Positions 4,910 to 64,000 of a stretch of 64,000 nt of DNA are shown here, one piece after another. Source of the stretch: Alphaproteobacteria bacterium RIFCSPLOWO2_01_FULL_40_26 (GTDB taxonomy: Bacteria; Pseudomonadota; Alphaproteobacteria; Rickettsiales; UBA1997); contig MEMO01000016.1 of the NCBI GenBank assembly GCA_001767955.1, positions 39,404 to 103,403 of the forward strand, read 5' to 3'. The notes below the pieces were generated by a model, which saw only the letters and a program-made list of their open reading frames with translations, ran no database searches and was not told where the DNA came from. A program made the position numbers and the translations under genes. Within the stretch, counting starts at the first letter, position 1, and each line of letters starts with the position of its first letter.

Positions 4910-4934
4910 AATCTCTTAATTTCTTTAAAATTTT

Positions 4935-5795
4935 ATGAAAAAACATTCCGCCTTCTCCCTAATAGAACTCTCAATCGTCATCTTAATCATCGGTATCCTA
5001 GTCGCCGGTATAACCCAATCTTCCCGCCTGGTTAAAGCAATGAAGCTAAAAACCGCTCAAAACCTAACCAAAAGCTCTGCCGTTAACAGCATTAAAAATC
5101 TGACCATATGGTATGAAACAACCGTCGATGAAAGTTTCGCTGATAGTGAAGAAGAAAATAACACAGACATCAGCACCTGGAACGACATAAACCCACAATC
5201 ATCATCCAAAAGCAATGCCACCCAATCAAGCACCAAACCGCAATATATCGAAGGTGCGATGAATGGTCTTCCGGTTGTGAGGTTTAATGGAACTGATGAT
5301 TTCTTAAATTTCGACGGAACTCTACTCGTCAACACCAACTATACGATTTTTGTGGTGGAGCAGAGGAGGACTGGCACCGGTATTAACAAACATTTTCTTG
5401 GCGGATCCGGAGTGGCAACCAATACTAACCTGCATCTAGGATATCGTAACGATACGACAGTTACACAAGATCATTACAGCAATGCTATAAACTACACAAT
5501 CCCCGCCTACTCCTCCCCAATACCAAGAATCCACACTTTCTGGTTCAGCAACGCATCCGGAAATGGCAAAAAATACTGGCTTAATGGTGGAACAACCGCC
5601 GACGCATTCGACACTTCCCAAACAGCTTATGTGGCATCTTATGCTGGATCGGCAATTGGAAGATATGCTAGTACCAGCGACTACTTCAACGGCGACGTCG
5701 CCGAAATCATCATCTTCAACCGCGCTCTCAACACCGAAGAAAGACAAGCAGTTGAAAGCTATTTGAGCCAGAAATTTAATGTTAAAATTAGCTGA
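4935..5795 (+). CDS. prepilin-type N-terminal methylation domain fused to a LamG-like domain (paralog P2)
   Basis: N-terminus identical to P1 for the first 26 residues (MKKHSAFSLIELSIVILIIGILVAGI). VVRFNGTDDFL and GDVAEIIIFNRALNTEERQAVESYLSQKFNVKIS. No Cys. Confidence 0.8.
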   Translation: MKKHSAFSLIELSIVILIIGILVAGITQSSRLVKAMKLKTAQNLTKSSAVNSIKNLTIWYETTVDESFADSEEENNTDISTWNDINPQSSSKSNATQSSTKPQYIEGAMNGLPVVRFNGTDDFLNFDGTLLVNTNYTIFVVEQRRTGTGINKHFLGGSGVATNTNLHLGYRNDTTVTQDHYSNAINYTIPAYSSPIPRIHTFWFSNASGNGKKYWLNGGTTADAFDTSQTAYVASYAGSAIGRYASTSDYFNGDVAEIIIFNRALNTEERQAVESYLSQKFNVKIS

Positions 5796-8132: not shown

Positions 8133-9473
8133 CTACCAACGTATCTCGAATTTTTTGCGTAGGAAAATTGCTGCAGAATTTAGAATAATTAAAAATCCAA
8201 GTAGAACCAAAATTGCTGCTGCGGTTTTTTCGGCGAAACCTGATTCGGGTGAATCTGACCAAAGATAGATTTGCACCGGTAAGACTGATGTGGGATCGGT
8301 AAAATTTTGTGGGATATCGGCGATGAAAGCGACCATGCCAATCATCAAAAGTGGAGCAGTTTCGCCCAAAGCGCGCGAAATCGCCAAAATTGTTCCGGTC
8401 ATAATTCCCGGTACTGCAAGCGGTAAAAGATGATGCAAAGTGATCTGCATTTTTGAAGCGCCAAGAGCTGCAGCTCCATCACGAATTGAGTTTGGAATCG
8501 AACGAATAGTATTGCGTGTAGCGATAATAATAACCGGCAAAACCAGCATGAACAAAGTCATCCCGCCGACTAAAGATGAGGAACGCGGCAAATTCATAAA
8601 TTGCAGATAAACTGTTAATCCAAGCAGGCCGTAGATGATTGATGGAATTGCCGCGAGGTTATTGATGCTGATTTCAATTATGTCGGTAAAACGATTTTTT
8701 GGCGCGAATTCTTCAAGATAAAAGGCGCACATTATGCCAATTGGAAAAGCAAAAATCAGAAAAATTACCATCACCAAAAATGATCCGATCAAGCCAGCGC
8801 CAATGCCGGCAATTTCCGGTTCACGCGAATCGGCAAAAGTAAAAAATTTCCAGTTAAAAACTTTTCTTACCTGATTTTTTGTTTTCAGATCAGAAAGCCA
8901 GCGAATCTGATTGTCATTTAGTGAAGAGATATTTTGGTGTTTAAAAAACATATCGGCTTTTGATGCGGCACTTATCCAGAAAATTTTTAAATCGGGATTT
9001 TTCTTGATTTGTTCTTTTATCTCAAGGTTTGCGGCCTTGCTTACCAATTGATAAAGTGAGTTAATTTCAGCAAGTTTTGTGGCTTCGGGAAATCTTTGTC
9101 TCATTGCGTCTTTTATGGCTTGGCGATAATCATCTTCTTTCACGCTGATTTCCAAGGCGATTTCACTTCGGTAAAAATTGCTTTTGGCAAAAATCATAGC
9201 AAACAAAATCAGTAAAAATGCTAAAGCAAAGCCAACCGAAATCATGCCAAACAGCATAAATCGTGATTCGGCGGCATGACGCTTTTTTAGATTTCCAATT
9301 GTTCTAGAGCCTATCTTCAAATTCATTTGTCTTTGATTTTTTGTAAATTTTTGCTCATTTTTTTGAAGAATTTTTTGCAGTATGTCTAATACAGCTGCAA
9401 AATTCTTCAAAAAAGTCGCTAAAAATTTACAAAAAATCAAAGACAAATGAATTTGAAGACAGGCTCTAGCCAT
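8133..9473 (-). CDS. pstA: phosphate ABC transporter permease PstA (start uncertain: 9473 or 9326)
   Basis: C-terminal permease core (ISRALGETAPLLMIG) follows pstC. The first 49 codons are read through palindromic element G1. ATG 9473 overlaps the pstC stop by 8 nt. An alternative ATG at 9326 lies inside the element. Confidence 0.85.
   Translation of the reverse strand: MARACLQIHLSLIFCKFLATFLKNFAAVLDILQKILQKNEQKFTKNQRQMNLKIGSRTIGNLKKRHAAESRFMLFGMISVGFALAFLLILFAMIFAKSNFYRSEIALEISVKEDDYRQAIKDAMRQRFPEATKLAEINSLYQLVSKAANLEIKEQIKKNPDLKIFWISAASKADMFFKHQNISSLNDNQIRWLSDLKTKNQVRKVFNWKFFTFADSREPEIAGIGAGLIGSFLVMVIFLIFAFPIGIMCAFYLEEFAPKNRFTDIIEISINNLAAIPSIIYGLLGLTVYLQFMNLPRSSSLVGGMTLFMLVLPVIIIATRNTIRSIPNSIRDGAAALGASKMQITLHHLLPLAVPGIMTGTILAISRALGETAPLLMIGMVAFIADIPQNFTDPTSVLPVQIYLWSDSPESGFAEKTAAAILVLLGFLIILNSAAIFLRKKFEIRW
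9304..9469. mobile_element. MITE-like palindrome family G, copy G1
   Basis: Near-perfect 166-bp palindrome ctagagcctatcttcaaattcatttgtctttgattttttgtaaattttt...aaaaatttacaaaaaatcaaagacaaatgaatttgaagacaggctctag, flanked by TA. Confidence 0.85.
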
Positions 9474-15855: not shown

Positions 15856-16073
15856 GGAATTATGGCTTAAGTCTACAAACTCTAAGTAAAACCAATAAAC
15901 TCCACCACACTGTCACCCCGCACTTGTTGCGGGGTCCATTTGGTCGCAACCAATAAAATCAAGTCTTTGACGAGATGGACCCCGCAACAAGTGCGGGGTG
16001 ACAGTGTGGTGAGATTTGTGATTTAGCTTAGAGTCTGTAAATTTGAATCTGGGTTTCTTAAACGTTATTGGGG
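15840..16073. repeat. composite palindrome C1 (family C shell with a family B core)
   Basis: Terminal inverted repeats ccccaataacgcttaag / cttaaacgttattgggg (15840-15856 / 16057-16073). The inner arms are also inverted. Confidence 0.85.
15902..16011. repeat. palindromic repeat family B, copy B1 (core of C1)
   Basis: ccaccacactgtcaccccgcacttgttgcggggtcca ... tggaccccgcaacaagtgcggggtgacagtgtggtg. Each arm is itself a hairpin (ccccgca cttgt tgcgggg). Confidence 0.9.
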
Positions 16074-17260: not shown

Positions 17261-17293
17261 ACTCTCTCAATGGTTTAGACAGGTTCTTAAATT

Positions 17294-17318
17294 GTCATCC
17301 CGAACTTGTTTCGGGATC
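17294..17318. repeat. family B-like single hairpin arm (diverged, B3)
   Basis: gtcatcccgaacttgtttcgggatc compared with the family B arm gtcaccccgcacttgttgcggggtc. Confidence 0.6.
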
Positions 17319-17325
17319 TATTGTG

Positions 17326-17423
17326 GCCATGTCGCAAATCAACTTCCTGAAAAATCTGAACCCTTGATTTACAAGGGCTCGTCGAGTTTAAAAATGGTAA
17401 GAAATGGGGATTTGCGACAGTCC
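17326..17423. repeat. palindromic repeat family E, copy E1 (intergenic)
   Basis: ccatgtcgcaaatc...cccttgatttacaaggg...gatttgcgacagtc. About 94 percent identical by eye to the reverse complement of copy E2 at 41387-41484. Confidence 0.9.
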
Positions 17424-17623
17424 CATTGTGAAAGACACAATATTTTTGATAACAACTAAAAAAATAGCAAACTCGGAAAGAAGTTTGAAACCTGAATTTT
17501 GTGCAAAAGTTCTCATGAAGAATTATTCGAAAAACATTTTGTTGATTTTTATTTAGGCGTAGAGTTATAGATTATTTGGTTGTTTAGTTTAACATTTTTT
17601 TAAATTTTATTTATAACATTTCT

Positions 17624-18493
17624 ATGAAACGCGCTTTTTCATTAATTGAGTTATCCATTGTAATTTTGATCATCGGCATTTTGGTTGCCGGCATTACTCA
17701 AAGCTCAAGGTTGGTTTCAGCAATGAGACTTAATTCAGCAAGAGCTTTAACTCAGAGCTCTCCAGTGAATTCAATTAAAGATCTAACACTGTGGCTGGAA
17801 ACTACCTCCACTAAAAGCTTTGCCACCGGCACCTCTACTTTTACCAATGTTGAAGAATTAGATAATGATACCTCTATCGGCAGATGGAATGACATCAATC
17901 CTCAAGCTTCTTCCAAAAATAATGCCACTAAATCAACATCTGATCAGGCAAAATATACCACCAATGCCATTAATGGTTTGCCGGCGGTAAGATTTAACGG
18001 AACCAATAATAATTTTGCTTTTGACGGCACTGTGCTTGTTAATACCAATTACACAATTTTTGTGGTTGAGCAAAGACGTTCCAATGGTAGTAATGGGTGG
18101 CTTCTCATTGGTTCCGCTAGTGCATCCAATACTAACTTACATGTTGGTTATCAAGACGACACTACCATGAGATATACTCATTTTAATAATAACCTGACCG
18201 ATACTGTTTCGGCTTATAGCTCGCCTGCTCCAAGGCTTCATATTTTTAGATTTGATCAAGGTAGCGGCAGACAATATTGGAGAAGTGATGACACAACCAA
18301 CCCTGGCGCTTCCGATGCACAAACAGCGCTTTTGGCTTCATATGCCAATTCATCAATCGGAGGATATGGCACTGATTGGTTTAATGGCGATATAGCCGAA
18401 ATCATCGCCTTCAATCGCGCTTTAAAATCTGAAGAAAGACAAGCGGTAGAAAGCTATTTGAGTCAAAAGTTCAATATTAAAATTAAATACTAG
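17624..18493 (+). CDS. prepilin-type N-terminal methylation domain fused to a LamG-like domain (paralog P3)
   Basis: MKRAFSLIELSIVILIIGILVAGITQSSRLV. AVRFNGTNNNF and GDIAEIIAFNRALKSEERQAVESYLSQKFNIKIKY. Closest to P2. No Cys. Confidence 0.8.
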   Translation: MKRAFSLIELSIVILIIGILVAGITQSSRLVSAMRLNSARALTQSSPVNSIKDLTLWLETTSTKSFATGTSTFTNVEELDNDTSIGRWNDINPQASSKNNATKSTSDQAKYTTNAINGLPAVRFNGTNNNFAFDGTVLVNTNYTIFVVEQRRSNGSNGWLLIGSASASNTNLHVGYQDDTTMRYTHFNNNLTDTVSAYSSPAPRLHIFRFDQGSGRQYWRSDDTTNPGASDAQTALLASYANSSIGGYGTDWFNGDIAEIIAFNRALKSEERQAVESYLSQKFNIKIKY

Positions 18494-35562: not shown

Positions 35563-36480
35563 CTATTTCCCGCCCCCTAAAAACGCGTAAGAAAGAATTT
35601 TATAACAAAGCTTCGCCGCTAGAAAATCGCAGGAATGAAGTTGTTTTATTGGCGCAAGCTCAACCACATCAGCGCCAACAAATTTGGAAATTTTGCCAGC
35701 TTCGCGGATGATATCGAGCGCGTCTTCCCACATCACGCCTCCTGGTTCCGGCGTGCCGGTTGCCTGCATTAAACTTGAATCAAATCCATCCAAATCAAAG
35801 GTAACAAAAACCGGACGATTTTTTAGCGGCGCAACAATTTTTTTTGCGTCCCATTTTCTTTTGTCTTTACCAAAGTGAATGGCGATGCGGTGGCGATTGG
35901 CTTCAAGATACGGAATTTCACTCGCGGAAATATTTCTGATGCCACATGAAATCAGTGTTGAAATCGGATAATCCATAACACGACGAAGCGCTGAAGCATG
36001 CGAATAATGCTCGCCATCATAACCATCGCGCAAATCGGCATGGGCATCAAAATGCAAAATTGCCAGATCGGGATATTTTTTGACGAAAGGCCGAATTGAG
36101 CCGGCGGTAATTGAATGCTCACCGCCAAGAATCAGCGGAAACTTTCCCGCTGCCAAAATTTTTTCTGTGATTTTTTCGAGCTGCTTCAGGGATTTTACAA
36201 CGGACGCGTGATCAATTTTTTGCTCTTTCATCGTCACCACGCCATATTTGCGAAAAGGTTCGCACCAAAATTCTTCATCAAAAAGCTCAACTTGCTTTGA
36301 GGCTTTGATAATGGCTGCAGGCCCTTTAGACGTACCTCCGCCATAGCTCACCGATTTTTCCAAACCAAATGGCACGACAACAACTTTTGCGTCATCAAGC
36401 GATTTCAGATATTTTTCTTCAATGCCAAGAAAGCCGGATTTTTGCGGTAGAAGATTTGAGAGAACAAAATTTTTGGTCAT
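35563..36480 (-). CDS. speB: agmatinase (ureohydrolase family)
   Basis: GGEHSIT, HFDAHADLRD, TFDLDGFD and EPGG manganese-site motifs. Confidence 0.85.
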   Translation of the reverse strand: MTKNFVLSNLLPQKSGFLGIEEKYLKSLDDAKVVVVPFGLEKSVSYGGGTSKGPAAIIKASKQVELFDEEFWCEPFRKYGVVTMKEQKIDHASVVKSLKQLEKITEKILAAGKFPLILGGEHSITAGSIRPFVKKYPDLAILHFDAHADLRDGYDGEHYSHASALRRVMDYPISTLISCGIRNISASEIPYLEANRHRIAIHFGKDKRKWDAKKIVAPLKNRPVFVTFDLDGFDSSLMQATGTPEPGGVMWEDALDIIREAGKISKFVGADVVELAPIKQLHSCDFLAAKLCYKILSYAFLGGGK

Positions 36481-37670
36481 AAAAAATTCAAAACATTAAC
36501 ATGTCCCATCTTGCGCCCGGCAACAATTTTCTCTTTGCCGTAAAGATGAATTTTTGCACGCGGATTTTTGTAAAATTTGTCCAGATTTTTTACTTCATCG
36601 CCGATTAAATTTTTCATAAAACCGCAAGAATGAAATTTTGTTGAACCAAGCGGAAGAGCAGTAATAGCGCGGATCAATTGCTCAAATTGTGAAGTAACCG
36701 CCCCATCCATCGAAAAATGTCCGGAGTTGTGCGGTCTTGGCGCCAACTCATTTACGAGCAATTCACTGCCAACAACAAAAAATTCAACCGCCAAAATTCC
36801 AACCAAATTAATTTCTTTGGCAATTTTTTTTGCCAGGCTTTGCGCCTTTATTCTCAAGCCTTTTGGGATTTGTGCCGGATAAAAACTTTGATCCAAAATG
36901 CCGTTTTTGTGAATGTTGGTTAACGGCTCATAAGCAGCAATTTCACCATTTTTTGAACGCGCAACTATCACCGAAATTTCCGAATCAAATGGACAAAATT
37001 TTTCCAGAATTAATTTTGGACCCCGCAACAAGTGCGGGGTGACAGGCTTCGGAGTGATGCTAGCGCTTGTCACCCCGCACTTGTTGCTTGTCACCCCGCA
37101 CTTGTTGCTTGTCACCCCGCACTTGTTGCTTGTCACCCCGCACTTGTTGCGGGGTCCATCTATCAAACTACTCCAGACTCTATCAGCATCCACAGCGTTT
37201 TTCAAAACAAACTGCCCCTTGCCATCATAACCCATCATGGCGGTTTTTAAAATGGCTTTGCCAAATTTTTTTAGATTTTTTTGCAGAACTTCACGACTTG
37301 GAATTTCAGCATATTCCGTGGCTTTTATGCCAATCGAATTAAGAAAATTTTTTTCCAAAATACGATTTTGTGTGATTTTTAAAATTTGCGGCTTCGGACA
37401 GACTTCAACTTGTGAAGCAAGATAATCAGCGGTTTCAAAAGGGATATTTTCAAATTCAAAAGTGGCGATATCGACCATCTTGCTAAATTTTTTCAGCGCC
37501 ATTTTGTCGGAATAATCAGCATTGATTATTTGATTGGTTACAAAACTCGCCGGAGAATTTTTTTGATCGCTAAACACAACGCTGCGAAAGCCCATCATAT
37601 GCGCATAAAAACAGGTCATGCGTCCCAATTGCCCGCCGCCAATGATACCAATGGTTGTGATTTTTTTCAT
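36477..37670 (-). CDS. purK: N5-carboxyaminoimidazole ribonucleotide synthase carrying an in-frame 47-codon repeat insertion
   Basis: ATG 37670 gives MKKITTIGIIGGGQLGRM. ATP-grasp core GYDGKGQ and C-terminal HLYGK...GRKMGHV. The insert GPRNKCGVTS(NKCGVTS)x3...VTPHLLRGP is encoded by repeat B2. Confidence 0.9.
   Translation of the reverse strand: MKKITTIGIIGGGQLGRMTCFYAHMMGFRSVVFSDQKNSPASFVTNQIINADYSDKMALKKFSKMVDIATFEFENIPFETADYLASQVEVCPKPQILKITQNRILEKNFLNSIGIKATEYAEIPSREVLQKNLKKFGKAILKTAMMGYDGKGQFVLKNAVDADRVWSSLIDGPRNKCGVTSNKCGVTSNKCGVTSNKCGVTSASITPKPVTPHLLRGPKLILEKFCPFDSEISVIVARSKNGEIAAYEPLTNIHKNGILDQSFYPAQIPKGLRIKAQSLAKKIAKEINLVGILAVEFFVVGSELLVNELAPRPHNSGHFSMDGAVTSQFEQLIRAITALPLGSTKFHSCGFMKNLIGDEVKNLDKFYKNPRAKIHLYGKEKIVAGRKMGHVNVLNFL
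37018..37158. repeat. palindromic repeat family B, copy B2, with a 4x 21-nt internal tandem array, inside purK
   Basis: ggaccccgcaacaagtgcggggtgac...(cttgtcaccccgcacttgttg)x4...cggggtcc, about 141 bp (47 codons). Confidence 0.92.
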
Positions 37671-37727
37671 AGCTTCAAAGAGAAAGCGCGGCAAGCTAGG
37701 AAGTGAGACAACATTTTCAACAAATTT

Positions 37728-38429
37728 ATGCCGCAAAAATTCCAACAATTAAAAAAGGCGAAACGCTTGAAAAAATCTTCGCAGAAATGGCTGTTGCGAC
37801 AAATTAATGATCCTTTTATTGAGCGCGCCAAAGCTGAAGGATGGCGCTCTCGTGCTGCTTTCAAGATTATTGAAATTGATCAGAAATTTAAAATTTTTAA
37901 AAAAGGAAAAATCGTGGTTGATCTTGGCGCTGCGCCGGGAGGATGGTCGCAATATGCGGTGCAAAAAGTGGGTGAGGGCAATGTGATTGCGATTGACCTT
38001 TTGCCAATTGATCCGATTCCGGGAGTGAAATTTTTTGTTCAGAATTTTTTGTCAGAAGATGCGGCAAAAAAAATAATTTCCGGACTGGAAGGAAAATGCG
38101 ATATTCTGCTTTCCGACATGGCCGCAAACACCATGGGCGATAGACAAACCGATCATTTACGCATCATTGCACTGCTCGAAGAATCGCTAAATCTGGCGGA
38201 AAAAATTTTACGCCAAGGCGGATGTTTTGTGGGAAAAATTTTTCAAGGCGGAAGTTCCAACGAAATTCTAAAAAAACTCAGAAAAAACTTTTCGACCGTA
38301 AAATATTTCAAACCCGAATCTTCACGCAAAGATTCGGCAGAAACTTATTTGGTAGCATCGGGATTCACTCCGTATGACTCTGAAGAGGTGGAAGAAGGGA
38401 GGGGGGAGTTGTTTCGACAATTGCGCTAA
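37728..38429 (+). CDS. rlmE: 23S rRNA (uridine2552-2'-O)-methyltransferase RlmE/FtsJ
   Basis: SSQKWLLRQINDPFIERAKAEGWRSRAAFK and SAM motif VVDLGAAPGGWSQ. Confidence 0.92.
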   Translation: MPQKFQQLKKAKRLKKSSQKWLLRQINDPFIERAKAEGWRSRAAFKIIEIDQKFKIFKKGKIVVDLGAAPGGWSQYAVQKVGEGNVIAIDLLPIDPIPGVKFFVQNFLSEDAAKKIISGLEGKCDILLSDMAANTMGDRQTDHLRIIALLEESLNLAEKILRQGGCFVGKIFQGGSSNEILKKLRKNFSTVKYFKPESSRKDSAETYLVASGFTPYDSEEVEEGRGELFRQLR

Positions 38430-40102: not shown

Positions 40103-41122
40103 TTATTTTCCCGCAATCCCAAGTTTTTCAAAAAGTCTGCGATCGCGCTCCATTTCCGGGTTTGAGGTGGTAAGTAATTTTTCGCCATAAAAAATCGAAT
40201 TAGCTCCGGCAAGAAAACACAAAGCTTGGGTTTGCTCATTCATATTTTCACGGCCGGCTGACAAACGCACCACAGATTTTGGCATCATGATGCGCGCAAC
40301 GGCAATGGTTCGGACAAATTCGAATTGATCGAGATCTTCAACTTTTTCAAGCGGCGTGCCCTTGACTTTCACCAACATGTTGATTGGAACTGATTCGGGA
40401 TGCTTCGGCAAATTAGCGAGCACGATCAGCATTTTTGCCCGATCTTCACGCATTTCTCCCATGCCGACAATTCCGCCCGAACAAACATTCAGGCCGGCTT
40501 CGCGCACGTTTTTGAGGGTGTTGAGACGATCCTCAAAACTGCGCGTGGAAATAATTTCCGAATAAAATTCTGGCGAAGAGTCGATATTGTGGTTGTAGTA
40601 ATCAAGCCCGGCATCCTTGAGTTTCTTGCTTTGCGAGTCGGTTAGCATTCCAAGCGTCATACAGGTTTCAAGGCCGGTTTTTTTTACCGCATCGACAATT
40701 TCACAAATCTTTTTTACATCGCGATCATGAAGATTTCTCCATGCCGCTCCCATGCAAAACCTTGAAGCACCAGCTTCTTTCGCTGCTTTGGCGGCATCAA
40801 GAATTTTTGAAATTTCCATCAGCGCAGATTTTTCAAGACCAGTGTTATAATGCGCCGATTGCGGACAATATTTGCAATTTTCCGGACAGGAACCGGTTTT
40901 GATGCTTAAAAGCGTGCTGATTTGCACCGCATTCGGATTGTGATTTTGGCGATGAATTTCCGCCGCTTTGAAAACAAGATCGGAAAATGGCAATACAAAA
41001 AGTTGTTCGACTTCCGCAACCTTCCAATCATGACGAGTATTAAAATCGTAAGATAAAACGGGTAATTCCGTTGATTCCGTTTGGCAGAGTTCTTTCATTA
41101 TTCTTTCCAGATAATATGGCAT
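40103..41122 (-). CDS. bioB: biotin synthase (alternative start 41098)
   Basis: Radical-SAM [30 protein letters not shown]. Confidence 0.93.
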
Positions 41123-42183
41123 TTGAAGAGCTCGCCCATTTGATCAGGCGCGATTAAACGATCAATAGCGGAATTTTCGTTTGGCAATTTTTTGCGGCGC
41201 TCTTCGATGCCAAGCGAAATTAAAAATTCCCTTTGCGTTAATAATTGCGAATTCAGATTAAAATTTTTGGCGATTTTATCGAGCGCGGAAAAATCAACAT
41301 GGGCGGTAATGTCGCAATCTTTTTCAAACAGGCTAACTTTGCGGTGATTTTTTACAGCTTGCAAAGTGTTGGCAAATTCATTTTGAGACTGTCGCAAATC
41401 CCCATTTCTTACCATTTTTAAACTCGACGAGTCCTTGTAAATCAAGGGATCAGATTTTTCAGAAAGTTGATTTGCGACATGGTCATTTTGGACATAGCCA
41501 TAATCAAAATTGATGGCGATTCCACCGTGAATATTCAAGGCTTCGCAGAGTTGTGTCATAAATTTTCGCGCAGCGAAACTATATTCAAAAACCGCACCGA
41601 TTCTAGCGAGGGAGGTTATTTCTTTTTCCACAAACTGATGAAGTTTCAAATCAAAATTCCTGATCACAAACCTTTCTGAATCAATCAAACGCTCGCACCA
41701 GCCAATGTCGGTTTTGATGAATTGGTCGATGGGAAAACAATCAAAAAGTTCGTTGGAAAGGAAAAAAATTTGCCCATTTTTTTGTTGCAGAAACTCATCA
41801 AAACTTTCATGCCATTCAACTTCAAAATCCTTCAATTTTTCCTGCTGAATTTTTCTTAAAACCGGATTGATCTCAATGATGTGAAGTTCTGCAAACTCAA
41901 GAAAATCAATGGCTTGTGAGATTTTTTTATCGGCAAATTTTTTGATTGTGATCAGAATATCAAAAAACAAAGTTCCCTTTCCCGCGCCCATTTCCACCAG
42001 AGCAACTTTTGACTTTTTTGCAGAAAAAATCTGCAAAAAACAGGCGGCAATTAATTCACCAAACACCTGAGAAATTTCCGGAGAAGTTATGAAATCGGCG
42101 AGAGGATTTTTGGTGTGGTAATAGCCTTGTTCTTTATCAAACAAGGCTTCTTGCATGAAATGTGAAATACCTATGGCCGCCAA
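41098..42183 (-). CDS. class I SAM-dependent methyltransferase, NDUFAF7/MidA (DUF185)-like, carrying an in-frame repeat insertion
   Basis: [27 protein letters not shown] and DYGY...TLQAVKNH...DITAHVDFS pattern. The segment [35 protein letters not shown] is encoded by repeat E2. Confidence 0.8.
41387..41484. repeat. palindromic repeat family E, copy E2, inside the methyltransferase gene
   Basis: gactgtcgcaaatcccca...tccttgtaaatcaaggga...gatttgcgacatggtc, reverse-complement orientation relative to E1. Confidence 0.9.
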
Positions 42184-42938
42184 TTGAGGAAATTTTTTAA
42201 CAATTTTAATCCCGTTTCACCGCTTTTTTCGGGGTGGAATTGCACACCAAAAATATTTTCCTTCGCCACAATTGCGGTAAGTTTATCGCCATATTCAACT
42301 TGCGCCAAAACGTTATTTTCATTCTGACAAACAAAGTGATAGGAATTGGCAAAATAAAAATGTTCACCATTTTCTATACCTTGCAGAACCGCATGTTTAT
42401 TGGGTTTAATAATAATATCGTTCCAGCCCATATGCGGGATTTTTAGAATCGACCCCCCATCCCCCTCCAGGGGGAGGTCGCGCATACGCGTCGACTTCTT
42501 CGTTAAGAGAGATTGAGTTTGCGAGAAGAGAGATTGAGTTTGCGGGAGGTCGCGCATACGCGTCGACTTCTTCGCTGAATTAGCATCGAGAATTTGAGGA
42601 ATTTTTTCAACATGCCCGTTGATAAATCCCAATCCCTGATGCTCGCCATTTTCATATCCGATATTGGCCAAAACCTGCATGCCGACACAAATTCCAAGAA
42701 AAGGTTTTTTTTCTTTTAAAACCTGATTGCGCATTTCCGGCAAAAATCCTTCCATGTTTTTAAGACTATCCATGCAATCACCAAACGCACCAACGCCGGG
42801 CAAAATCAGATAATTGGCTGATTTGAGATCGGAAATTTTATTCGAAACCGTGATTTCTTGGGGATTGGCAATATGCGATAGAGCATTGGCAACCGAACAC
42901 ACATTGCCGGCGCCATAATCGATGATGAGTATCTTCAT
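42171..42938 (-). CDS. hisH: imidazole glycerol phosphate synthase glutamine amidotransferase subunit HisH carrying an in-frame repeat insertion
   Basis: [26 protein letters not shown] (catalytic Cys), PHMGWN, GVQFHPEKS. An insert of about 45 aa, ...KKSTRMRDLPQTQSLFSQTQSLLTKKSTRMRDLPLEGDGGS, is encoded by repeat F1. Confidence 0.9.
   Translation of the reverse strand: MKILIIDYGAGNVCSVANALSHIANPQEITVSNKISDLKSANYLILPGVGAFGDCMDSLKNMEGFLPEMRNQVLKEKKPFLGICVGMQVLANIGYENGEHQGLGFINGHVEKIPQILDANSAKKSTRMRDLPQTQSLFSQTQSLLTKKSTRMRDLPLEGDGGSILKIPHMGWNDIIIKPNKHAVLQGIENGEHFYFANSYHFVCQNENNVLAQVEYGDKLTAIVAKENIFGVQFHPEKSGETGLKLLKNFLNWRP
42450..42584. repeat. repeat family F, copy F1 (partly duplicated), inside hisH
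   Basis: gaccccccatccccctccaggg-ggaggtcgcgcatacgcgtcgacttcttcg-(agagagattgagtttgcg)x2-ggaggtcgcgcatacgcgtcgacttcttcg. Boundaries approximate. Confidence 0.88.
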
Positions 42939-43306
42939 GCAACTCTGAAACTTTTAGCAAAACGTAATTCTGCATCAGTTTGATCCTGCCCAAAAACAAA
43001 ACCGACAAACTCATAGCCCCTTTTTTTTAGATGCTCGCAAAGCCAGTAATTGGCATTTAGAGCTACGATGAAGATGAAAAAAAATTCCAAAATCATCTTA
43101 TCAAAAGACGAGGAAATCTGGCCGAACCAGACAAAAACGATATTAATCACAACCAGCGCTACGCTTTCTCTCCACATCCTGTGATATAAAAACCACAGGA
43201 TGCTGAAAAAAAATGCTGCGAAAGAAAAACCTTCCGAAAGCAAAACAATGTCGGGATTTTCTGCGTTAGAATTTTTTTTGATCAGAGCGCTGTAAATCTT
43301 TGTCAT
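42935..43306 (-). CDS. DUF2628-family small membrane protein
   Basis: [19 protein letters not shown] motif and two TM helices. Confidence 0.65.
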
Positions 43307-43659: not shown

Positions 43660-43686
43660 TTTTCTCCTGTAGTTATGCGCCCTCTT

Positions 43687-43797
43687 GACCCCCCGCCCCC
43701 CTATCCCACTAAATAGGGGGATAGGGGGAGGTCGCGCATTCGTTCGCTTTGCTCACTACGCGTCGACTTCTTTGTGGAGGATAGTTTGAGTTTGCGG
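43687..43797. repeat. repeat family F, copy F2 (rpmI-rplT spacer)
   Basis: gaccccccgcccccctatccc..gggatagggggaggtcgcgcat[17-nt insert]tacgcgtcgacttctttg..gatagtttgagtttgcgg. Same orientation as F1. Confidence 0.85.
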
Positions 43798-43804
43798 TTA
43801 TATT

Positions 43805-44741: not shown

Positions 44742-44819
44742 TTTTTAATGAATTTTCGCACAACATAAATTCCGATGCAGTAGTTTCAAGATTGCTTTCA
44801 AAGATTTTATTTTTATACT

Positions 44820-44995
44820 CAATCCAGCTGAAGAAGCCGATTTATGACGAAGCATTTTTGAGGAAAAATTGCGACCCCGTCGACGCGCAGCGCGACAAAA
44901 CAGAATGCGGGCTGTATCAAGTGATACAGCCAAATTCTCCGAGCAAATTTTTACCAAAAAGGCGAAGTCAGAAATCGGCTTCTTCAGCTGGATTG
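44820..44995. repeat. palindromic repeat family H, copy H1 (grpE-clpP spacer)
   Basis: Terminal inverted repeat caatccagctgaagaagccgattt / aaatcggcttcttcagctggattg. Internal hairpin gctgtatcaagtgatacagc. Confidence 0.88.
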
Positions 44996-45031
44996 GGTAT
45001 AGAAATTCGCAAAATTAAATTTCACAAATTC

Positions 45032-46945: not shown

Positions 46946-47109
46946 TAGAGCCTGTCTTAAAACCCAACGTGTCTCGATTTTCCATAAATTTTGAGCGACT
47001 TTTTGGCAAAATTTTGCCGCTGTATTCAACATACTGCAAAAAATTTTGCCAAAAAACGAGCCAAAATTTATGGAAAATCGAGGCGCGGTGGGTTTTAAGA
47101 CAGGCTCTA
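46946..47109. mobile_element. MITE-like palindrome family G, copy G2
   Basis: tagagcctgtcttaaaacccaac..tctcgattttccataaattttg...caaaatttatggaaaatcgag..gtgggttttaagacaggctcta, 164 bp, TA-flanked. Confidence 0.85.
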
Positions 47110-47152
47110 GAGCCTGTGTCTGGAATATTTCGTGCATCGTGCTTCGGTAATA
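47110..47152. repeat. family A-like half element (A3) abutting G2
   Basis: gagcctgtgtctggaatatttcgtgcatcgtgcttcggtaat. It resembles the left arm of A2 (cttgtgtct...tcgtgcttcgtgc). No matching right arm. Confidence 0.55.
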
Positions 47153-47176
47153 TTGCGTCTCTAAGTATAGCGCCGA

Positions 47177-49862: not shown

Positions 49863-49870
49863 GATTAATT

Positions 49871-50107
49871 CCTCGATAACGCTTAAGAAAATTTGTAATC
49901 ACTTTACTCTCCATGGGTCATTTACCACTCACAAAATATTACCCCTCACAAAATATTACCCCTCACCCCAACCCTCTCCCACAAGGGGAGAGGGAGTAGC
50001 GCCGAATTCGGACTAACTCCCTCTCCCCTTGTGGGAGAGGGTTGGGGTGAGGGGTAATGTTCTTCAAAGAGTAAGGTTGAGAGCATTTTTCCTAAGCGTT
50101 ATTGGGG
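49871..50107. repeat. composite palindrome C2 (family C shell with family D core 49956-50057)
   Basis: Termini cctcgataacgcttaag / cctaagcgttattgggg. Core ttacccctcaccccaaccctctcccacaaggggagagggag...ctccctctccccttgtgggagagggttggggtgaggggtaa. Short tandem ttacccctcacaaaata units on the left arm. Confidence 0.9.
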
Positions 50108-50217
50108 TTAAATTAATAATTAATAACAGGCTTAGGCTCAACTTCTCATTTTAATTTTTGATCTTTGACTTTTGATTTTATTCATTAGTTTCCGCGCACG
50201 TTTAAACAACTGATTCT

Positions 50218-56260: not shown

Positions 56261-56425
56261 TAAGAACCTGTCCTAAATCTTTTTTAACCCCATATTTTGC
56301 CCTGTTTTGGCTTATTTTTTGCCAAAATTTTTCAAAATATGTCCATATATTTATCAAAATTTTGACAAAAAAACGCTCAAAACATGACAAAATCTGTGAT
56401 TAAAAAAGATCTAGGACAGGTTCTA
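56261..56425. mobile_element. MITE-like palindrome family G, copy G3
   Basis: taagaacctgtcctaaatctttttt...aaaaaagatctaggacaggttcta, 165 bp, TA-flanked. It contains the annotated ATG of the AsmA-like gene. Confidence 0.8.
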
Positions 56426-59400
56426 AAACAAAAATTGCTATCTACCATCAAATCGGAAGCTGTCAAAATCGGCGCTGTGGTTTTTATCTCCATAATTCTG
56501 CTGGTTATGATTCTGCCGCTTTTTTTTGATAATTCGGCGTTGAAATTTCAGATTGCGCAAAAAATCAGCCATATTTCAAACGCAAATTTTTCAATTAAAG
56601 GAGGGCTAAAAATAGCATTGCTACCATATCCAAAAATCACTGCCTATGATGTGTTTTTGCAAAATTATCAGACAAAATCTGTAGATGAAAATGGGCAAAA
56701 AATTTATAATTTTTATGCCAAATCCGTTACCGTGAAATTTCCGATTTTTCATGATTCACAAGATAATCCGATAGATAAAATAATTTTCTCCGATGTAGTT
56801 CTCACAAGACATTATACCACAAATAATGATCTTGCCCGCCAAAATAAATTTACGGAAAACCTGACACAATTCACCAAAAATTCCACCAACAATTCCAATG
56901 AAAAAAAAGTAGGATCAGGAATCAGTGAAAAATTATTTCCAATTGAAGACATAAAATCCTCTCACTTTTCAGCCACATCATTACCGCAAATAACCATCAA
57001 AAATGGTGAAGCAATTTTATATGATAAATTTGAACGCAAGAAGGAAATCAAATCCATCAATGCTGAAATAGAATGGAGCAAGGAAAGAATTATCACTGCA
57101 GGAAATTTTCAAAGCGAAGAGGTAAAAAGCGATTTTAAAATATTGGCAAAATTTAATTCGAAATCAGGAAAACATGACTCAATTTTAGAGTTGGCTTCTC
57201 CGCTTATACAACTGCACGCAAGCGGAAATTTTACTTCAGAAAATCGCGGGATCACGGCTAGTGATTTTAAGGGCAAAATTGAAGCGGAAATTTTTGAACT
57301 GAAATCCGCCTATCAAAGCTATTTCAAAAATAATGACTTGCTGGCGCAAAAATTAAAATACAACGCCAAGCCAATAAAAATCAGCGCTGATATTGCAAAT
57401 AGCGGCAAAGAAATTTCCATCGCAAATTTGAATGTGATTTCCGATGTGGCAAAGGGAAATGGCAATATCAATCTCGATTTCAATCTCGATTTCAATCTCG
57501 ACTTCACTGGCACAAATAAAGTGACAACAATTGACGCCATGCTGTCTTTTGAGAATCTTGATCTCGATAATTTATGGTCAACAGACACAGTCCAAACAAC
57601 AGATGCCGTTAACACAAAAGAAGCTCAAACTGAAGAAACTCAAATTACAAACGGGGAGGATAAAACACAGGATTCACAAGATTTAAGCCTCAGCACAAAA
57701 ATCAAAAATTTTGATCTGGCCGCTGAAATCAAAATCGCCAATGTCAAATATCGCCAGGGTGAAATCAAAGATGCCGACATTTATCTAACCATTTCAAAAA
57801 ATGGTGAAATCATGATATTGCCAATGATTTTCAGGATTCCGGGAGATGGAATTTTACGCATCAATGGCGTTGTCGACAACTCTTTGGCCTTTCCAAAATT
57901 CATCGGCAAAATTGATGCTTCCGGCAAAAGCATGAAAGATATTTTTAAGTGGCTGAATATCGAATCACAAAATCTGAAATATGACAATCTCGGACAATAC
58001 AACCTTTACTCCGATGTCATGCTTTTGCCAAACAACCTGTCTCTCAACAATCTCTATCTCAATATCAACAATGGCACAAGCGAGCTGCTCGGTGAAATCA
58101 AGGCACAAAGTCAAAGTAAAACAACAACCATAATTAGCCGCTTTGAAGTCGGAAATTTCAACATTGACGATTATTTCCTCACCTCGGGACAAAATGTTTA
58201 TTTGTCCTATGGATCTCTGCTAAAAAAGATGTTCTGGCTTAACAATATCTCATCAAACAATGAGCTTAATTTAAAGTTCGATCGTTTGGTTTACAAAGGA
58301 GAGGAATTTCCGGAGCAATCGCTGAAATTGAAGTTCGGACGCGGTTATTTGCAGATTTCTGATCTTAATCTCAAATCACAAAACACCGACTTGAACGCCA
58401 ATATGACCATTGATATTAGCGACAAAAACCCACGCTTTGAAATTGACGCCAAAGGTGAAAATTTCCTTTATGAAACTACACAAAAAAGTGAATTGATTAA
58501 AGATGAAAAACAGAAACCCAAAAATTTTCTTGATCAGTTTTACACTTTACCATCGCTTGAGGGATTCAATGGCAAAGTTTCATTCGATTTTGGCAATGTC
58601 ATCATGGATAATCTTACACTCAAAAACGTTAAATTTGCCGGAAAACTAAAAGATGGAAATATCGAAAAATCAGAATTCGCTTGTGATGCATATGATGGAA
58701 AATTCAGCTACAAGGGCACAATCGGCATCAAAAACAATAAGACCATTAACGGCAATTTTTCATTCAGCGATGCTCAGTTGCAGCCACTTTTATCCGACAT
58801 GTTTGGTATCAAAAACATTTCCGGAATCGCCAATATCTCAGCAAACATCACTTCAATTGCCGATAAGAAATCCGATTTCGCCAAACAATTAAGCAGTGAA
58901 GTAAAATTCAGCACCAATGCACCAATAGTTGAAGGATATGGTTTAAGCGATCTGGTAAAAAAAATGCTCGCCAAACAAATCTATCAAAATGAGCTGCGCG
59001 ATCCGGAAAAAATTTTGTTCAACAAGGAAAGCAAAACCATCTTCAAACAGGCCAGTGGAACGATTCAGATTAACAATGGACAAAATGGAAGAATGCGCAT
59101 CAATGTTAATGCACCGGCAATCAACGCCATTTTATCCGGTACGATTAATGCTGAAAACATAACGATTGATACTTTGTTTAATGCCATCTTCATTACCGGA
59201 AATCATCAAAAACAAACTCCAATCAACATCGCAACCAATCTCAAAGGGCCAACCAACAACATACAACAAAACACCAACTTTGATCAGGTGAAGCAATATC
59301 TCGGTTTAATAAAAGGCACAAACATTATACCCACACCATTAGAACCTCCAACACAGCCAAATCAGCAGCAGCTGATATATGATCAAACACAATTGAGATT

Positions 59401-59494
59401 GCCGCCGGAAGTAACGCAAATACAAAATCAGGCCGAATCCATGAAATCCATGCTACCTGCACAAACAGAGCAAACAGAACAACCAGTACAATGA
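56384..59494 (+). CDS. AsmA-family outer-membrane biogenesis / lipid-transport-like protein (start uncertain)
   Basis: N-terminal TM (IGAVVFISIILLVMILPLFF) followed by a long beta-rich, Asn-rich region of about 1000 aa, as in AsmA-like proteins. An alternative TTG start at 56435 lies just outside element G3. Confidence 0.7.
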   Translation: MTKSVIKKDLGQVLKQKLLSTIKSEAVKIGAVVFISIILLVMILPLFFDNSALKFQIAQKISHISNANFSIKGGLKIALLPYPKITAYDVFLQNYQTKSVDENGQKIYNFYAKSVTVKFPIFHDSQDNPIDKIIFSDVVLTRHYTTNNDLARQNKFTENLTQFTKNSTNNSNEKKVGSGISEKLFPIEDIKSSHFSATSLPQITIKNGEAILYDKFERKKEIKSINAEIEWSKERIITAGNFQSEEVKSDFKILAKFNSKSGKHDSILELASPLIQLHASGNFTSENRGITASDFKGKIEAEIFELKSAYQSYFKNNDLLAQKLKYNAKPIKISADIANSGKEISIANLNVISDVAKGNGNINLDFNLDFNLDFTGTNKVTTIDAMLSFENLDLDNLWSTDTVQTTDAVNTKEAQTEETQITNGEDKTQDSQDLSLSTKIKNFDLAAEIKIANVKYRQGEIKDADIYLTISKNGEIMILPMIFRIPGDGILRINGVVDNSLAFPKFIGKIDASGKSMKDIFKWLNIESQNLKYDNLGQYNLYSDVMLLPNNLSLNNLYLNINNGTSELLGEIKAQSQSKTTTIISRFEVGNFNIDDYFLTSGQNVYLSYGSLLKKMFWLNNISSNNELNLKFDRLVYKGEEFPEQSLKLKFGRGYLQISDLNLKSQNTDLNANMTIDISDKNPRFEIDAKGENFLYETTQKSELIKDEKQKPKNFLDQFYTLPSLEGFNGKVSFDFGNVIMDNLTLKNVKFAGKLKDGNIEKSEFACDAYDGKFSYKGTIGIKNNKTINGNFSFSDAQLQPLLSDMFGIKNISGIANISANITSIADKKSDFAKQLSSEVKFSTNAPIVEGYGLSDLVKKMLAKQIYQNELRDPEKILFNKESKTIFKQASGTIQINNGQNGRMRINVNAPAINAILSGTINAENITIDTLFNAIFITGNHQKQTPINIATNLKGPTNNIQQNTNFDQVKQYLGLIKGTNIIPTPLEPPTQPNQQQLIYDQTQLRLPPEVTQIQNQAESMKSMLPAQTEQTEQPVQ

Positions 59495-60298: not shown

Positions 60299-60336
60299 CT
60301 ATTTTGCCGCGTCCTTTAACCACCTTACTTCCAAAA

Positions 60337-62175
60337 ATGACAGATTTTCGCAACATCGCCATAATCGCTCATGTTGACCATGGCAAAACCACTTTGATTG
60401 ATGCCATGTTGCATCAAAGCGGAACTTTTCGTGCCAATCAGCAAGTTGAAACACGCGTGATGGATTCCAACGCGCTCGAAAAAGAACGCGGCATTACCAT
60501 TCTTGCCAAATGCACTTCACTGATGTGGGGGGGCAACAAAATCAATGTTATTGACACTCCCGGACATGCCGATTTTGGCGGTGAAGTTGAGCGTGTTTTG
60601 TGTATGGCTGATAGCTGTCTGCTTTTGGTTGATTCTGCAGAAGGTGTAATGCCACAAACCAAATTTGTGCTCTCAAAGGCTTTGGCCATCGGACTTCGTC
60701 CTATTGTAATCATCAACAAAATTGATCGCCAAGATGCGCGCCCTGATGAAGTTTTAAACGAAATTTTTGATCTTTTCGTTTCACTAAATGCCAATGATGC
60801 ACAGCTTGATTTTCCAGTTTTATATGCCGTTGGCCGCGATGGCTGGTGCGTTCGCGATATTGAAAAAGATCAGCGCAAAGATCTCTCGCCACTTTTTGAT
60901 CTGATCCTCGAGCATATCACGCCACCAAAATTTGATACTGACGCACCATTCAAAATGCTGGCCACTCTTCTCGATCACAGCCCATATTTTGGCCGCATGC
61001 TAACCGGCCGTATCTATTCCGGACGCGCTAAAAATCTGATGAGTTTCAAGGCAATTAACTTGAAAGGTGAAGTGGTAGAACAAGGCCGCCTCACTAAACT
61101 CCACGTCTTTCGCGGTGTTGAAAAAGTTGCGGTGGAAGAAGCAAAAGCCGGCGACATTGTCTCAATTGCCGGTTTGGAAAAAGCATCAGTTTCCGACACA
61201 CTTTGCGATTTGTCAGTTTTCGAACCAATTAAATCAACGCCAATTGATCCACCGACAATGGCCATCACAATTGGCGTCAATGATTCTCCTCTCGCCGGAA
61301 CGGAAGGTAGTAAAGTGACCTCGCGCATGATTCGCGATCGCCTTTTTGCCGAGGCTGAAACCAACGTCGCCATTAAAGTTAAAGAATCAGGGGCCAAAGA
61401 TGCTTTTGAAGTGGGCGGACGCGGTGAATTACAACTTGGCGTGCTAATTGAAAATATGCGTCGTGAAGGCTTCGAGCTTTCAGTTTCAAGGCCTCGTGTG
61501 CTTTTCAAAAAAGGTGAAAATGATGAAATTTCAGAACCGGTGGAAGAAGTTGTGGTTGATGTTGATGATAATTTCAGCGGCGTTGTTGTTGAAAAACTTT
61601 CATCGCGCAAAGGCGAAATGATTGATATGCGCCCATCTACCGGCGGCAAAACTAGAATTATTTTTTATGTGCCTTCGCGCGGGTTAATTGGATATCAAAG
61701 CGAATTTTTAACCGATACTAAAGGCACCGGCGTTCTAAACAGAATTTTCCACGCCTATATTCCATATAAAGGCGAAATGTCGGAACAAAAAAGCGGCGCA
61801 TTAATTGCAACCGATCCAGGCGAAGCTGTGGCCTACGCTTTATGGAATCTGCAGGAACGCGGAGCGTTATTTATCAAACCGCAACAAAAAGTTTATTCCG
61901 GAATGGTTGTCGGAGAAAATTCCAAACAGGGTGATTTGGAAGTGAATGTTTTGAAAGGCAAACAACTCACCAACATTCGCGCTTCCGGCACTGACGAAGC
62001 TATTCGCCTTACTCCGCCACGCGAATTAACACTCGAAGACATGATCACTTATGTTGGCGATGATGAGTTGGTAGAAGTAACACCAAAATCCCTGCGTCTG
62101 CGCAAAAAAGTTTTGGATTCAAATGAGCGCAAAAGATTGAGCAGAAGTAAGGAAGCGAAGTTTGATTTTGTTTAG
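60337..62175 (+). CDS. typA: translational GTPase TypA/BipA
   Basis: ATG 60337 gives MTDFRNIAIIAHVDHGKTTL. DTPGHADF and NKIDR motifs. Confidence 0.95.
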   Translation: MTDFRNIAIIAHVDHGKTTLIDAMLHQSGTFRANQQVETRVMDSNALEKERGITILAKCTSLMWGGNKINVIDTPGHADFGGEVERVLCMADSCLLLVDSAEGVMPQTKFVLSKALAIGLRPIVIINKIDRQDARPDEVLNEIFDLFVSLNANDAQLDFPVLYAVGRDGWCVRDIEKDQRKDLSPLFDLILEHITPPKFDTDAPFKMLATLLDHSPYFGRMLTGRIYSGRAKNLMSFKAINLKGEVVEQGRLTKLHVFRGVEKVAVEEAKAGDIVSIAGLEKASVSDTLCDLSVFEPIKSTPIDPPTMAITIGVNDSPLAGTEGSKVTSRMIRDRLFAEAETNVAIKVKESGAKDAFEVGGRGELQLGVLIENMRREGFELSVSRPRVLFKKGENDEISEPVEEVVVDVDDNFSGVVVEKLSSRKGEMIDMRPSTGGKTRIIFYVPSRGLIGYQSEFLTDTKGTGVLNRIFHAYIPYKGEMSEQKSGALIATDPGEAVAYALWNLQERGALFIKPQQKVYSGMVVGENSKQGDLEVNVLKGKQLTNIRASGTDEAIRLTPPRELTLEDMITYVGDDELVEVTPKSLRLRKKVLDSNERKRLSRSKEAKFDFV

Positions 62176-63846: not shown

Positions 63847-63862
63847 ACAGTTTCTAACATAA

Positions 63863-64000
63863 TCCCAATAACGCTTAAGAAAATTTGTAATCACTTTACT
63901 CTTTCTAGGTCATTTACCCCTCACAAAATATTACCCCTCACAAAAAAATATTACCCCTCACCCCAACCCTCTCCCACAAGGGGAGAGGGAGTTATACCAA
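63863..64000. repeat. composite palindrome C3 (family C terminus plus family D core), truncated by the window end
   Basis: tcccaataacgcttaagaaaatttgtaatcactttactc...ttacccctcaccccaaccctctcccacaaggggagagggag is nearly identical to the left half of C2. Confidence 0.88.

Follow-up and report, generated by a model that had tools for sequence, protein, structure and literature searches.

The window, the whole 64-kb stretch of DNA analyzed here, derives from an uncultured groundwater alphaproteobacterium, whose relatives in public databases are labeled only "Rickettsiales bacterium" or "Pseudomonadota bacterium." On its minus strand, at 42171..42938 with the stop codon counted in, lies a hisH gene encoding a protein of 255 amino acids. 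The translation of this open reading frame (...GHVEKIPQILDANSAKKSTRMRDLPQTQSLFSQTQSLLTKKSTRMRDLPLEGDGGSILKIPHMGWN...) is identical to that read in the first-pass annotation, which had described an intact frame with its catalytic motifs in place; this is borne out, as both the catalytic Cys in LGICVGMQ (Cys84) and the HPE motif (His235 and Glu237) are retained. The protein scores 212 bits against the HisH profile TIGR01855, compared with a curated cutoff of 105, and is thus a member of the HisH family, but the match is split in two by additional sequence, the second stretch covering residues 166-252. An identical HisH is encoded by an intact ORF on 20 public contigs, including one from GCA_001767865.1 (MEMG01000015.1) and several from metagenomes of this aquifer assembled at ENA and JGI.

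The hisH gene is solitary, flanked by a DUF2628 gene and a methyltransferase gene and lying outside any his operon. The gene order rpmI-rplT-DUF2628-hisH-Methyltransf_28-bioB is kept in relatives with a HisH of 208-209 amino acids, for example, L033 (GCA_964447395.1) and L035 (GCA_017999675.1, labeled "Rickettsiales bacterium"), so that the solitary position is conserved across the clade, including relatives without the additional sequence. Neither the 64-kb window nor the fetched loci were found to contain hisF, hisA, or another his gene. For hisF, a tblastn search with Thermotoga maritima HisF as the query covered the window together with every fetched locus and gave no match; in the window, his genes and transposases were sought by a Pfam scan of about 40 ORFs, again with none found.

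The additional sequence is a repeat-derived insert of 153 nt, or 51 codons, at 42447..42599, which is read on the minus strand and encodes PQILDANSAKKSTRMRDLPQTQSLFSQTQSLLTKKSTRMRDLPLEGDGGSI, including the peptides DLPLEGDGGSILK and DLPQTQSLFSQTQSLLTK. Its limits were set by comparison with the empty site in L033: where the window gene has 153 nt, the insert-free ortholog has 12 nt (SGEN) and reads GAAAAAATT-TCTGGCGAAAAT-CTAAAAAT, so that the window gene is longer by 47 codons net. The proposal that a dispersed repeat is inserted in frame just before the PHMGWN motif of HisH therefore stands, as does its location; the extent first given, 42450-42584, proves slightly too narrow against insert-free orthologs.

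On the plus strand, the insert is a succession of short modules in the order HP2 - SL1 - tail - tail - SL1 - degenerate tail. It opens with the short form of HP2, a C5/G5 hairpin (ACCCCCCATCCCCCT-CC-AGGGGGAG; 42452..42476), followed by the first copy of a 31-nt direct repeat (42472..42502), which holds the stem-loop SL1, GTCGCGC-ATAC-GCG(T)CGAC. Two tandem tail units of 21 nt (AAGAGAGATTGAGTTTGCGAG / ..GGG; 42505..42546) encode QTQSLFS and QTQSLLT; the 21-nt unit AAGAGAGATTGAGTTTGCG.. occurs here twice in tandem, and AGAGAGATTGAGTTTGCG is likewise present twice. The second copy of the 31-nt repeat, with the second SL1 (42544..42574), is 100% identical to the first, and a degenerate spacer and tail (CTGAATTAGCATCGAGAATTTGAGG; 42575..42599), encoding PQILDANS, closes the insert. 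The 30-mer GGAGGTCGCGCATACGCGTCGACTTCTTCG within the direct repeat has exactly two occurrences, 42473-42502 and 42545-42574, compared with none in 100 shuffles.

A second copy of the same repeat fills the spacer between rpmI and rplT, as had been proposed on the basis of the first reading, although its bounds are 43669-43804 (136 nt, plus strand) rather than 43687-43797. L033 has 8 nt at this position. The spacer copy and the hisH copy share colinear exact blocks of 17, 16, and 12 nt; the spacer copy consists of an HP2 of the long form, with CTATCCC/GGGATAG as its inner stem, an SL1 with a loop enlarged by 18 nt, and a single tail. Immediately downstream of it lies rplT, encoding ribosomal protein L20 (43303..43659, minus strand), and on its other side is an open frame containing rpmI, encoding ribosomal protein L35 (43805..44062, minus strand; 67-85 amino acids on related contigs), the stop codon of which abuts the repeat. 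These are the only two copies in the 64-kb window of what is here called family F, the name used in the first-pass annotation.

The length of the loop that carries the insert was compared among HisH proteins. Nearly all of the best 120 database matches are 206-212 amino acids long, and among them, a large insert at this loop is found only in P0002 (231 amino acids), P0003 (232 amino acids), and P0083 (235 amino acids). In 65 aligned close orthologs, the loop measures 3-8 residues in 60 proteins, 9-11 in two, and 27-31 in three, against 51 in the window; similar loops in HisH proteins from unrelated taxa had been named as an observation that would speak against an insertion, and the alignment leaves the insertion in place. 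The two loops of 9-11 residues belong to P0113 (221 amino acids) and P0116 (223 amino acids), the extra length of which is mainly C-terminal. The loop of P0083 is of a different origin: it is encoded by about 80 nt bounded by a perfect 11-bp inverted repeat, AACCCAAATCC...GGATTTGGGTT, and shows no similarity to family F.

Three kinds of module make up family F: the C5/G5 hairpin HP2, the inner stem of which varies; the stem-loop SL1 (GTCGCGC...GCG(T)CGAC); and tails of 21 nt, which number from one to three. After these tails, another SL1 and tail may follow, as in the long form. Given in the orientation of the window plus strand, the left end reads (TATGCACCC..)ACCCCCCAT. The HP2 consensus is CCCCCT-AGGGGG, with either nothing or an inner stem with the loop TAAATA between the two halves; inner stems include CCTCTCC/GGAGAG, TCTTCCC/GGGAAG, and CTATCCC/GGGATAG. 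The SL1 consensus is AGGTCGCGCA-T(A/G)CGCGTCGAC, with 0, 10, or 18 extra loop nucleotides at the hyphen, and SL1 is followed by TTCTTYG, a spacer, and the tail AGAGATYGAGTTTGCGAA. The pairing of these hairpins is supported by their variation: 97% of stem cells pair, compared with 49-62% when partners are slid, and five stem pairs are changed on both sides, a level of covariation matched by 0-1 of 500 shuffles. A G-C pair in the SL1 stem of L003 is changed to A-T. Long-form copies fold far better than shuffled sequences (z = -4.1 to -6.2); the hisH insert, with its short-form HP2, folds no better than shuffles (z = -1.4).

More than 12 distinct copies of family F were found in related genomes, in addition to the two in the window. 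A scan of public genome contigs with an SL1 pattern gave one true match, L008, an independent copy that has its modules in the same order and lies in the MAG of a lake alphaproteobacterium (a GTDB genome); three other genome matches, all GC rich, were discarded as chance. Further copies (in the series L019-L030) came from three JGI bins, Ga0155648, Ga0155344, and Ga0155951. Of the 13 loci from the metagenome scan, four (L021, L026, L027, and L031) lie in unrelated DNA of high GC content and match by chance. The two window copies match a family F profile, which draws on independent members in other genomes, with E-values of 1e-24 to 1e-27, which are partly circular because both copies are among the ten sequences from which the profile was built.

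The relatives also account for the internal duplication of the hisH copy. The duplication, reported from the first reading as a property of this copy, is real but is not specific to hisH, since an intergenic copy in L022 has the layout HP2 - SL1 - tail x3 - SL1' - tail-like and a copy in the ksgA gene of L028 has the layout HP2 - SL1 - tail - SL1 - tail. Thus, the duplication is the long-form architecture of the family, and the hisH copy is a long-form unit read on the reverse strand in a stop-free frame. This layout was probably present when the element arrived in hisH, or else it is easily regenerated by family F. In L023 and L025, whole family F units are tandemly arrayed.

Several copies lie within genes, as judged from Pfam assignments and translations. 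Two in-frame units are present in Mfd (L023; NTPHPPQGGGRACASTSS...), in-frame family F sequence is found in KsgA/RsmA (L028 and L030; ...SRGRSRMRVDFMDDETPSLQNLMSRMRVDFMDNETPSLQ), and two in-frame copies in QueC (L024) flank a different palindromic repeat. In RsmH (L008), family F provides the first 40 or so codons, and the ATG of rsmH overlaps the stop codon of mraZ. With hisH included, the in-gene copies are read in at least three frames or orientations (RMRDLPL..., NTPHPPQGGGRACASTSS..., and SRMRVDFMDDETPSLQ...), with both orientations of the element represented. Intergenic copies, in sites that include the rpmI-rplT and iscR-iscS spacers, contain stops in most frames. The stop-free frames within genes and the stops in intergenic copies therefore point to a filter for stop-free, in-frame landings and not to a dedicated coding function.

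Family F is not the only repeat in coding sequence at this locus. Both purK (+46 amino acids) and the Methyltransf_28 gene (+35 amino acids) carry in-frame inserts from other repeat families, so that three genes within 6 kb (hisH, purK, and Methyltransf_28) contain members of three repeat families.

Hallmarks of known mobile elements were sought in family F and at its insertion sites. Neither window copy has terminal inverted repeats; the sole inverted repeat within either is the internal HP2, and the full-length ends are not complementary. There is no target-site duplication at either hisH or rpmI-rplT when filled and empty sites are compared; rather, 8-15 nt are replaced by the element, at rpmI-rplT in comparison with L033 and at hisH in a comparison of L036 and L003. 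No transposase was detected by Pfam match among the long window ORFs other than 56384-59494 and 60304-62175, whether scanned directly or annotated on matching contigs, and the Rfam search, at both gathering and E-value thresholds, returned only tRNAs and noise, with no match to family F. The spread of the family could depend on its hairpins, by single-strand transposition, or could occur by recombination or gene conversion between copies.

The position of the insert in the HisH protein was examined by structure prediction and by sequence alignment to solved structures. Foldseek retrieved the HisH structures 4gud, 1kxj, 7ac8, and 1ka9_H as the best matches of the AlphaFold model, with target-normalized TM-scores of 0.82-0.90, confirming the HisH fold. 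The mean pLDDT of the model is 80, with values above 90 in the core and below 50 for residues 118-166; the insert is accordingly predicted to be disordered, whereas the core is predicted with confidence to be folded. The loop corresponds to residues 112-117 or so of T. maritima HisH and precedes the PHMGWN strand; the insert aligns between residues 110 and 115 of the Thermus thermophilus protein, just before residue 117 of the T. maritima protein. Two HisF-contacting residues of T. maritima, W123 and K181, are matched by W172 and K238 in the window protein, and K166, which directly follows the insert six residues before the hinge Trp, is the equivalent of T. maritima R117. In T. maritima, W123 forms the hinge contact with R249 of HisF, and R117 is assigned to the "more distant interface" between the two proteins; replacing R117 by alanine has only a minor effect on glutaminase activity (PMC12828452). 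Because the insert abuts the R117 equivalent, it is placed at the rim of the HisF interface and not in the interface itself, and it may affect HisF binding. An alternative placement of the loop, at a hairpin tip far from HisF, was dropped since R117 of T. maritima counts as an interface residue. Outside the loop, C84, H235, E237, W172, K238, and L165-K166 (immediately after the insert) are invariant in 65 orthologs, as is the H235-P-E-K-S motif.

The insert varies within the population from which the window derives. Two contigs, L001 and L002, encode a HisH of 231 amino acids that lacks a segment of 72 nt, or 24 codons (42503..42574 in the window or, in the alternative placement allowed by the 31-nt direct repeats, 42472-42543). 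The breakpoints fall inside these repeats. On one side of the gap, both contigs match the window without a difference for 2.4-2.9 kb; on the other side, a single base differs in 5.3 kb (L001) or 1.25 kb (L002). Samples from the same aquifer contain both alleles, of 255 and 231 amino acids. The insert owes its instability to the two identical 31-nt SL1 repeats: recombination between the SL1 copies, or replication slippage, would remove exactly 72 nt and yield the 231-amino-acid allele. The lost tails are near the family consensus and the remaining tail has diverged, so the lost tails could not have arisen by duplication of the diverged terminal tail of the short allele; deletion from the long allele is, by this argument, the parsimonious direction.

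A second species, represented by L003, carries a homologous insert in a hisH gene that is about 26% divergent from that of the window at the DNA level. Here, 87 nt stand in place of 15 nt (CGENL). The insert is present on L003, L004, and one 40-kb contig and is absent from L036 and L037, even though the latter are 99.0% identical to the insert-bearing strains upstream and 96.5% downstream. At the protein level, P0003, which has the insert, shows 100% identity outside the loop to P0006, which lacks it, the corresponding DNA being 96.5-99% identical. A 10-nt junction in the degenerate terminal spacer and tail that is otherwise variable, CTGAATTAGC, is common to the inserts of the window and L003. 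Within each species, the hisH and spacer copies share SL1 and HP2 variants, GTCGACGCG/GCGCGAC/GGGGGG in the window's species and GTCATCGCG/GCGTGAC/GGGAGG in the second species, which points to concerted evolution or local re-seeding of the copies. Insert-bearing HisH proteins are neither sister to one another nor monophyletic in a neighbor-joining tree. Three histories are compatible with these data: a single early insertion that was lost more than once, transfer of the insert by recombination, and insertion on several occasions. A single ancestral insertion common to the window and L003 is suggested by the shared junction, but the tree and the P0003/P0006 polymorphism do not favor it over the other two. 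The loop ANVAKGDFK of P0008 might, at a guess from the protein, be a deleted remnant of the insert.

These observations are best explained by a non-autonomous, hairpin-forming dispersed repeat that, in all probability, is both tolerated in a permissive HisH loop and translated along with the rest of the enzyme. Most likely, the insert would dangle from the enzyme as a disordered loop, leaving catalysis and HisF binding essentially intact, and its persistence would reflect near neutrality and not usefulness. Translation of the insert is inferred from the reading frames. Removal of the extra sequence before or after translation, as with an intervening sequence or an intein, would give a mature HisH without the insert, and the stable hairpins of the element could in principle serve as RNA-processing sites; nevertheless, motifs of inteins or introns are absent, Rfam gives no match, and the contrast between stop-free frames in genes and stops in most intergenic frames implies translation, making removal hardly credible. 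It is also very improbable that hisH is silent or decaying in a lineage that no longer makes histidine, with the insert tolerated because the gene no longer matters. Such decay would fit the solitary gene and the lack of other his genes in the window and fetched loci, but the ORF is intact on all 20 contigs, none of the 65 orthologs departs from the catalytic triad or from the Trp and Lys that contact HisF, and the same solitary position is occupied in relatives without the insert. Furthermore, dN/dS is 0.07 between the window and L003 and 0.19 between the window and L032, with dS saturated, and judged by these ratios, hisH is under purifying selection.

The opposite possibility, that the insert has been exapted as a selected interface add-on or regulatory loop that tunes HisH-HisF docking or allosteric activation, draws on its location at the interface periphery beside K166, on the retention of a homologous insert with an identical junction in a species so divergent that dS is saturated, and on the occupation of the same loop by an unrelated element in P0083. 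Against this, alleles with, without, or with half of the insert coexist in near-identical strains of two species, the peptide is poorly conserved between species and predicted to be disordered, the R117 alanine substitution has little effect in T. maritima (PMC12828452), and unrelated enzymes carry other family F copies in different reading frames. Exaptation is therefore decidedly unlikely. A bolder version, in which the HisH loop is a recurrent and perhaps targeted landing site, the polymorphism is trans-specific, and the loop tunes docking to or coupling with HisF in length steps of 24 codons, is highly doubtful; if true, it would amount to a natural, repeat-generated "interface add-on" on HisH with long-lived insert and no-insert alleles. 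Part of the allelic evidence could also be technical, given that the short form is known from two contigs only, both assembled with megahit, with breakpoints in direct repeats. An assembly artifact is, however, an unlikely source of the difference between 255 and 231 amino acids: a repeat of 31 nt is much shorter than either the final k-mer (141) or the reads, the two short-form contigs come from different assemblies, other repeat-associated indels separate contigs of the window's population, and presence/absence polymorphism occurs independently in the second species.

A nearly neutral, translated repeat at this position would have several implications. Selfish palindromic DNA inside coding genes, best known from Rickettsia, would extend to an uncultured lineage of aquifer alphaproteobacteria, and the evidence for its turnover is unusually direct in that natural populations contain alleles of one enzyme with the whole insert, with half of it, and with none. 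The HisH loop has been taken by two unrelated elements, and three neighboring genes bear inserts that represent three repeat families. In the annotation of such genomes, proteins of outlying length and domain matches broken in two would be real features and not frameshift errors. HisH/HisF is a well-studied allosteric system and could be used to show the cost of a repeat-encoded loop of 24 or 47 residues at the rim of an interface.

Apart from its loop, the window HisH resembles the solved enzymes of T. maritima (1GPW and 7AC8), T. thermophilus (1KA9), and Vibrio cholerae (4GUD) in its fold, catalytic triad, and interface Trp and Lys, with target-normalized TM-scores of 0.81-0.90 across these structures; it differs in having 51 residues at the insert loop, compared with about 4-7, a variable number, in these structures.

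The closest parallel to family F is provided by the Rickettsia palindromic elements (RPEs), repeats of 100-150 bp that are abundant in both intergenic and coding regions and occur in frame in many unrelated genes, at positions thought to be compatible with the fold of the protein (PMC10969869; PMC1779305). Like RPEs, family F comprises dispersed, multicopy, hairpin-forming repeats of about this size that lie between genes and, in frame and without disruption of the ORF, in unrelated housekeeping genes. The fold-compatible insertion into a surface loop is found in HisH as well, given the variable length of the loop and its modeled disorder, and the window region shares with RPE-bearing genomes the presence of several repeat families per genome with lineage-specific variants. 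There are also differences. The host is a groundwater alphaproteobacterium and not Rickettsia, and the likeness is one of behavior; family F is built of modules and includes tandem 21-nt tails as well as arrays; it has no single conserved frame or peptide but is read in at least three frames and in both orientations; and its length polymorphism within a population is seen directly.

Two other classes of small repeats offer partial parallels. Short palindromic repeats have been classified into GTAG- and CGTC-tagged superfamilies by Di Nocera et al. (2013), the CGTC type being predominant in Alphaproteobacteria, including RPE-4 and RPE-6, lacking a dedicated transposase, and sometimes being intragenic (PMC3733652). 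As with such REP sequences, family F consists of short imperfect palindromes that are often clustered and in some cases lie inside genes, and its SL1, a bulged 7-bp stem of about 19 nt in all, contains CGTC. However, by inspection against the published description of 20-40-nt palindromes (PMC3733652), the CGTC of family F is inside the SL1 stem and is not an unpaired terminal tag, the stems start with G/C and not A/T, there is no CCA tail, and the unit is a composite of two different hairpins plus tails, about 85-135 nt in length. Bacterial MITEs such as Correia, ERIC, and Nezha are occasionally fused in frame to host ORFs (PMC10969869), and family F resembles them in being small, noncoding, multicopy, and structured, but it lacks terminal inverted repeats, as well as target-site duplications at the two sites where empty and filled states can be compared. 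Because it has neither the hallmarks of CGTC REPs, as these are described, nor those of MITEs, and no single reading frame, family F is assigned here to no named family. By its behavior, it is classed as a new repeat family of the RPE kind, representing a known phenomenon in a new lineage.

Family F, the modular hairpin-forming repeat inserted in hisH, is accompanied by other repeats that lie in frame within coding sequences. The purK gene (ORF 36477..37748, minus strand) carries an in-frame insert of 46 aa (37017-37169, minus strand) derived from a third palindromic repeat family, further copies of which occur in the window at 15903-16011 and 17293-17321. Within this insert, the 21-nt unit GCTTGTCACCCCGCACTTGTT is present four times in tandem and encodes four successive NKCGVTS peptides. 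The called lengths of PurK range from 397 to 423 aa in the contigs of the window's population, and the ortholog in GCA_017999675.1 (“Rickettsiales bacterium”) lacks the 46-aa insert. The Methyltransf_28 gene that neighbors hisH (ORF 41098..42183, minus strand) likewise contains an in-frame insert, of 35 aa at approximately residues 232 to 266 (41377-41485, minus strand), consisting of a 109-nt repeat that is different from family F and has an intergenic counterpart at 17324-17432, to which it is 93% complementary; again, the GCA_017999675.1 ortholog is without the insert. A composite in-frame insert of ∼90 aa was found in queC of a related JGI bin (L024, positions 1-287), where a palindromic repeat of the GCACGAAG type lies between two family F units; repeats of this type are also present in the window, at 1749-1803, 2342-2405, and 47115-47169. 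In GCA_964437775.1 (L032, positions 725-841), the same HisH loop that harbors the family F insert in the window is occupied by an unrelated insert of ∼80 nt, the ends of which form a perfect 11-bp inverted repeat (AACCCAAATCC / GGATTTGGGTT).

Long repeats of at least four more families, palindromic or inverted in structure, are dispersed across the window, chiefly in intergenic regions, with repeats at 49869-50121 and 63855-63994, 9303-9469 and 46946-47111, and 1695-1809 and 2317-2431. The repeat content of this genome is unusually high given its housekeeping gene content. Within a palindromic repeat whose arms span 46946-47015 and 47040-47109, the window has a 152-nt segment (46956-47107) that is missing from the otherwise identical NCBI contig MEMG01000015.1 and from a further contig of the population (L010), a further example of a repeat-associated indel among these contigs. 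Another aquifer metagenome contig (L011, positions 1-2480) matches the window as far as ∼45001, beyond which a recG-like helicase gene takes the place of clpP. The divergence point falls within an inverted repeat (44809-44872 / 44943-45006), so either the DNA was rearranged there or the repeat gave rise to a chimeric assembly.

A prepilin-type N-terminal methylation motif (MKKHSAFSLIELSIVILIIGILVAG) stands at the start of three paralogous genes of the window (4054-4133, 4934-5013, and 17617-17696), and at least one of the three contains a laminin-G/concanavalin-like domain. Relatives encode VirB4 (L019, a locus of a related JGI bin) and an ankyrin-repeat protein of 1,308 aa (GCA_964447395.1). 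Upstream of hisH, a DUF2628 gene (42935-43306, minus strand) showed a subthreshold match (49.8 bits; cutoff, 90) to Erum7620/ECH_0207, an Ehrlichia family whose members are putative type I secretion effectors; this match weakly hints at a Rickettsiales-like lifestyle.
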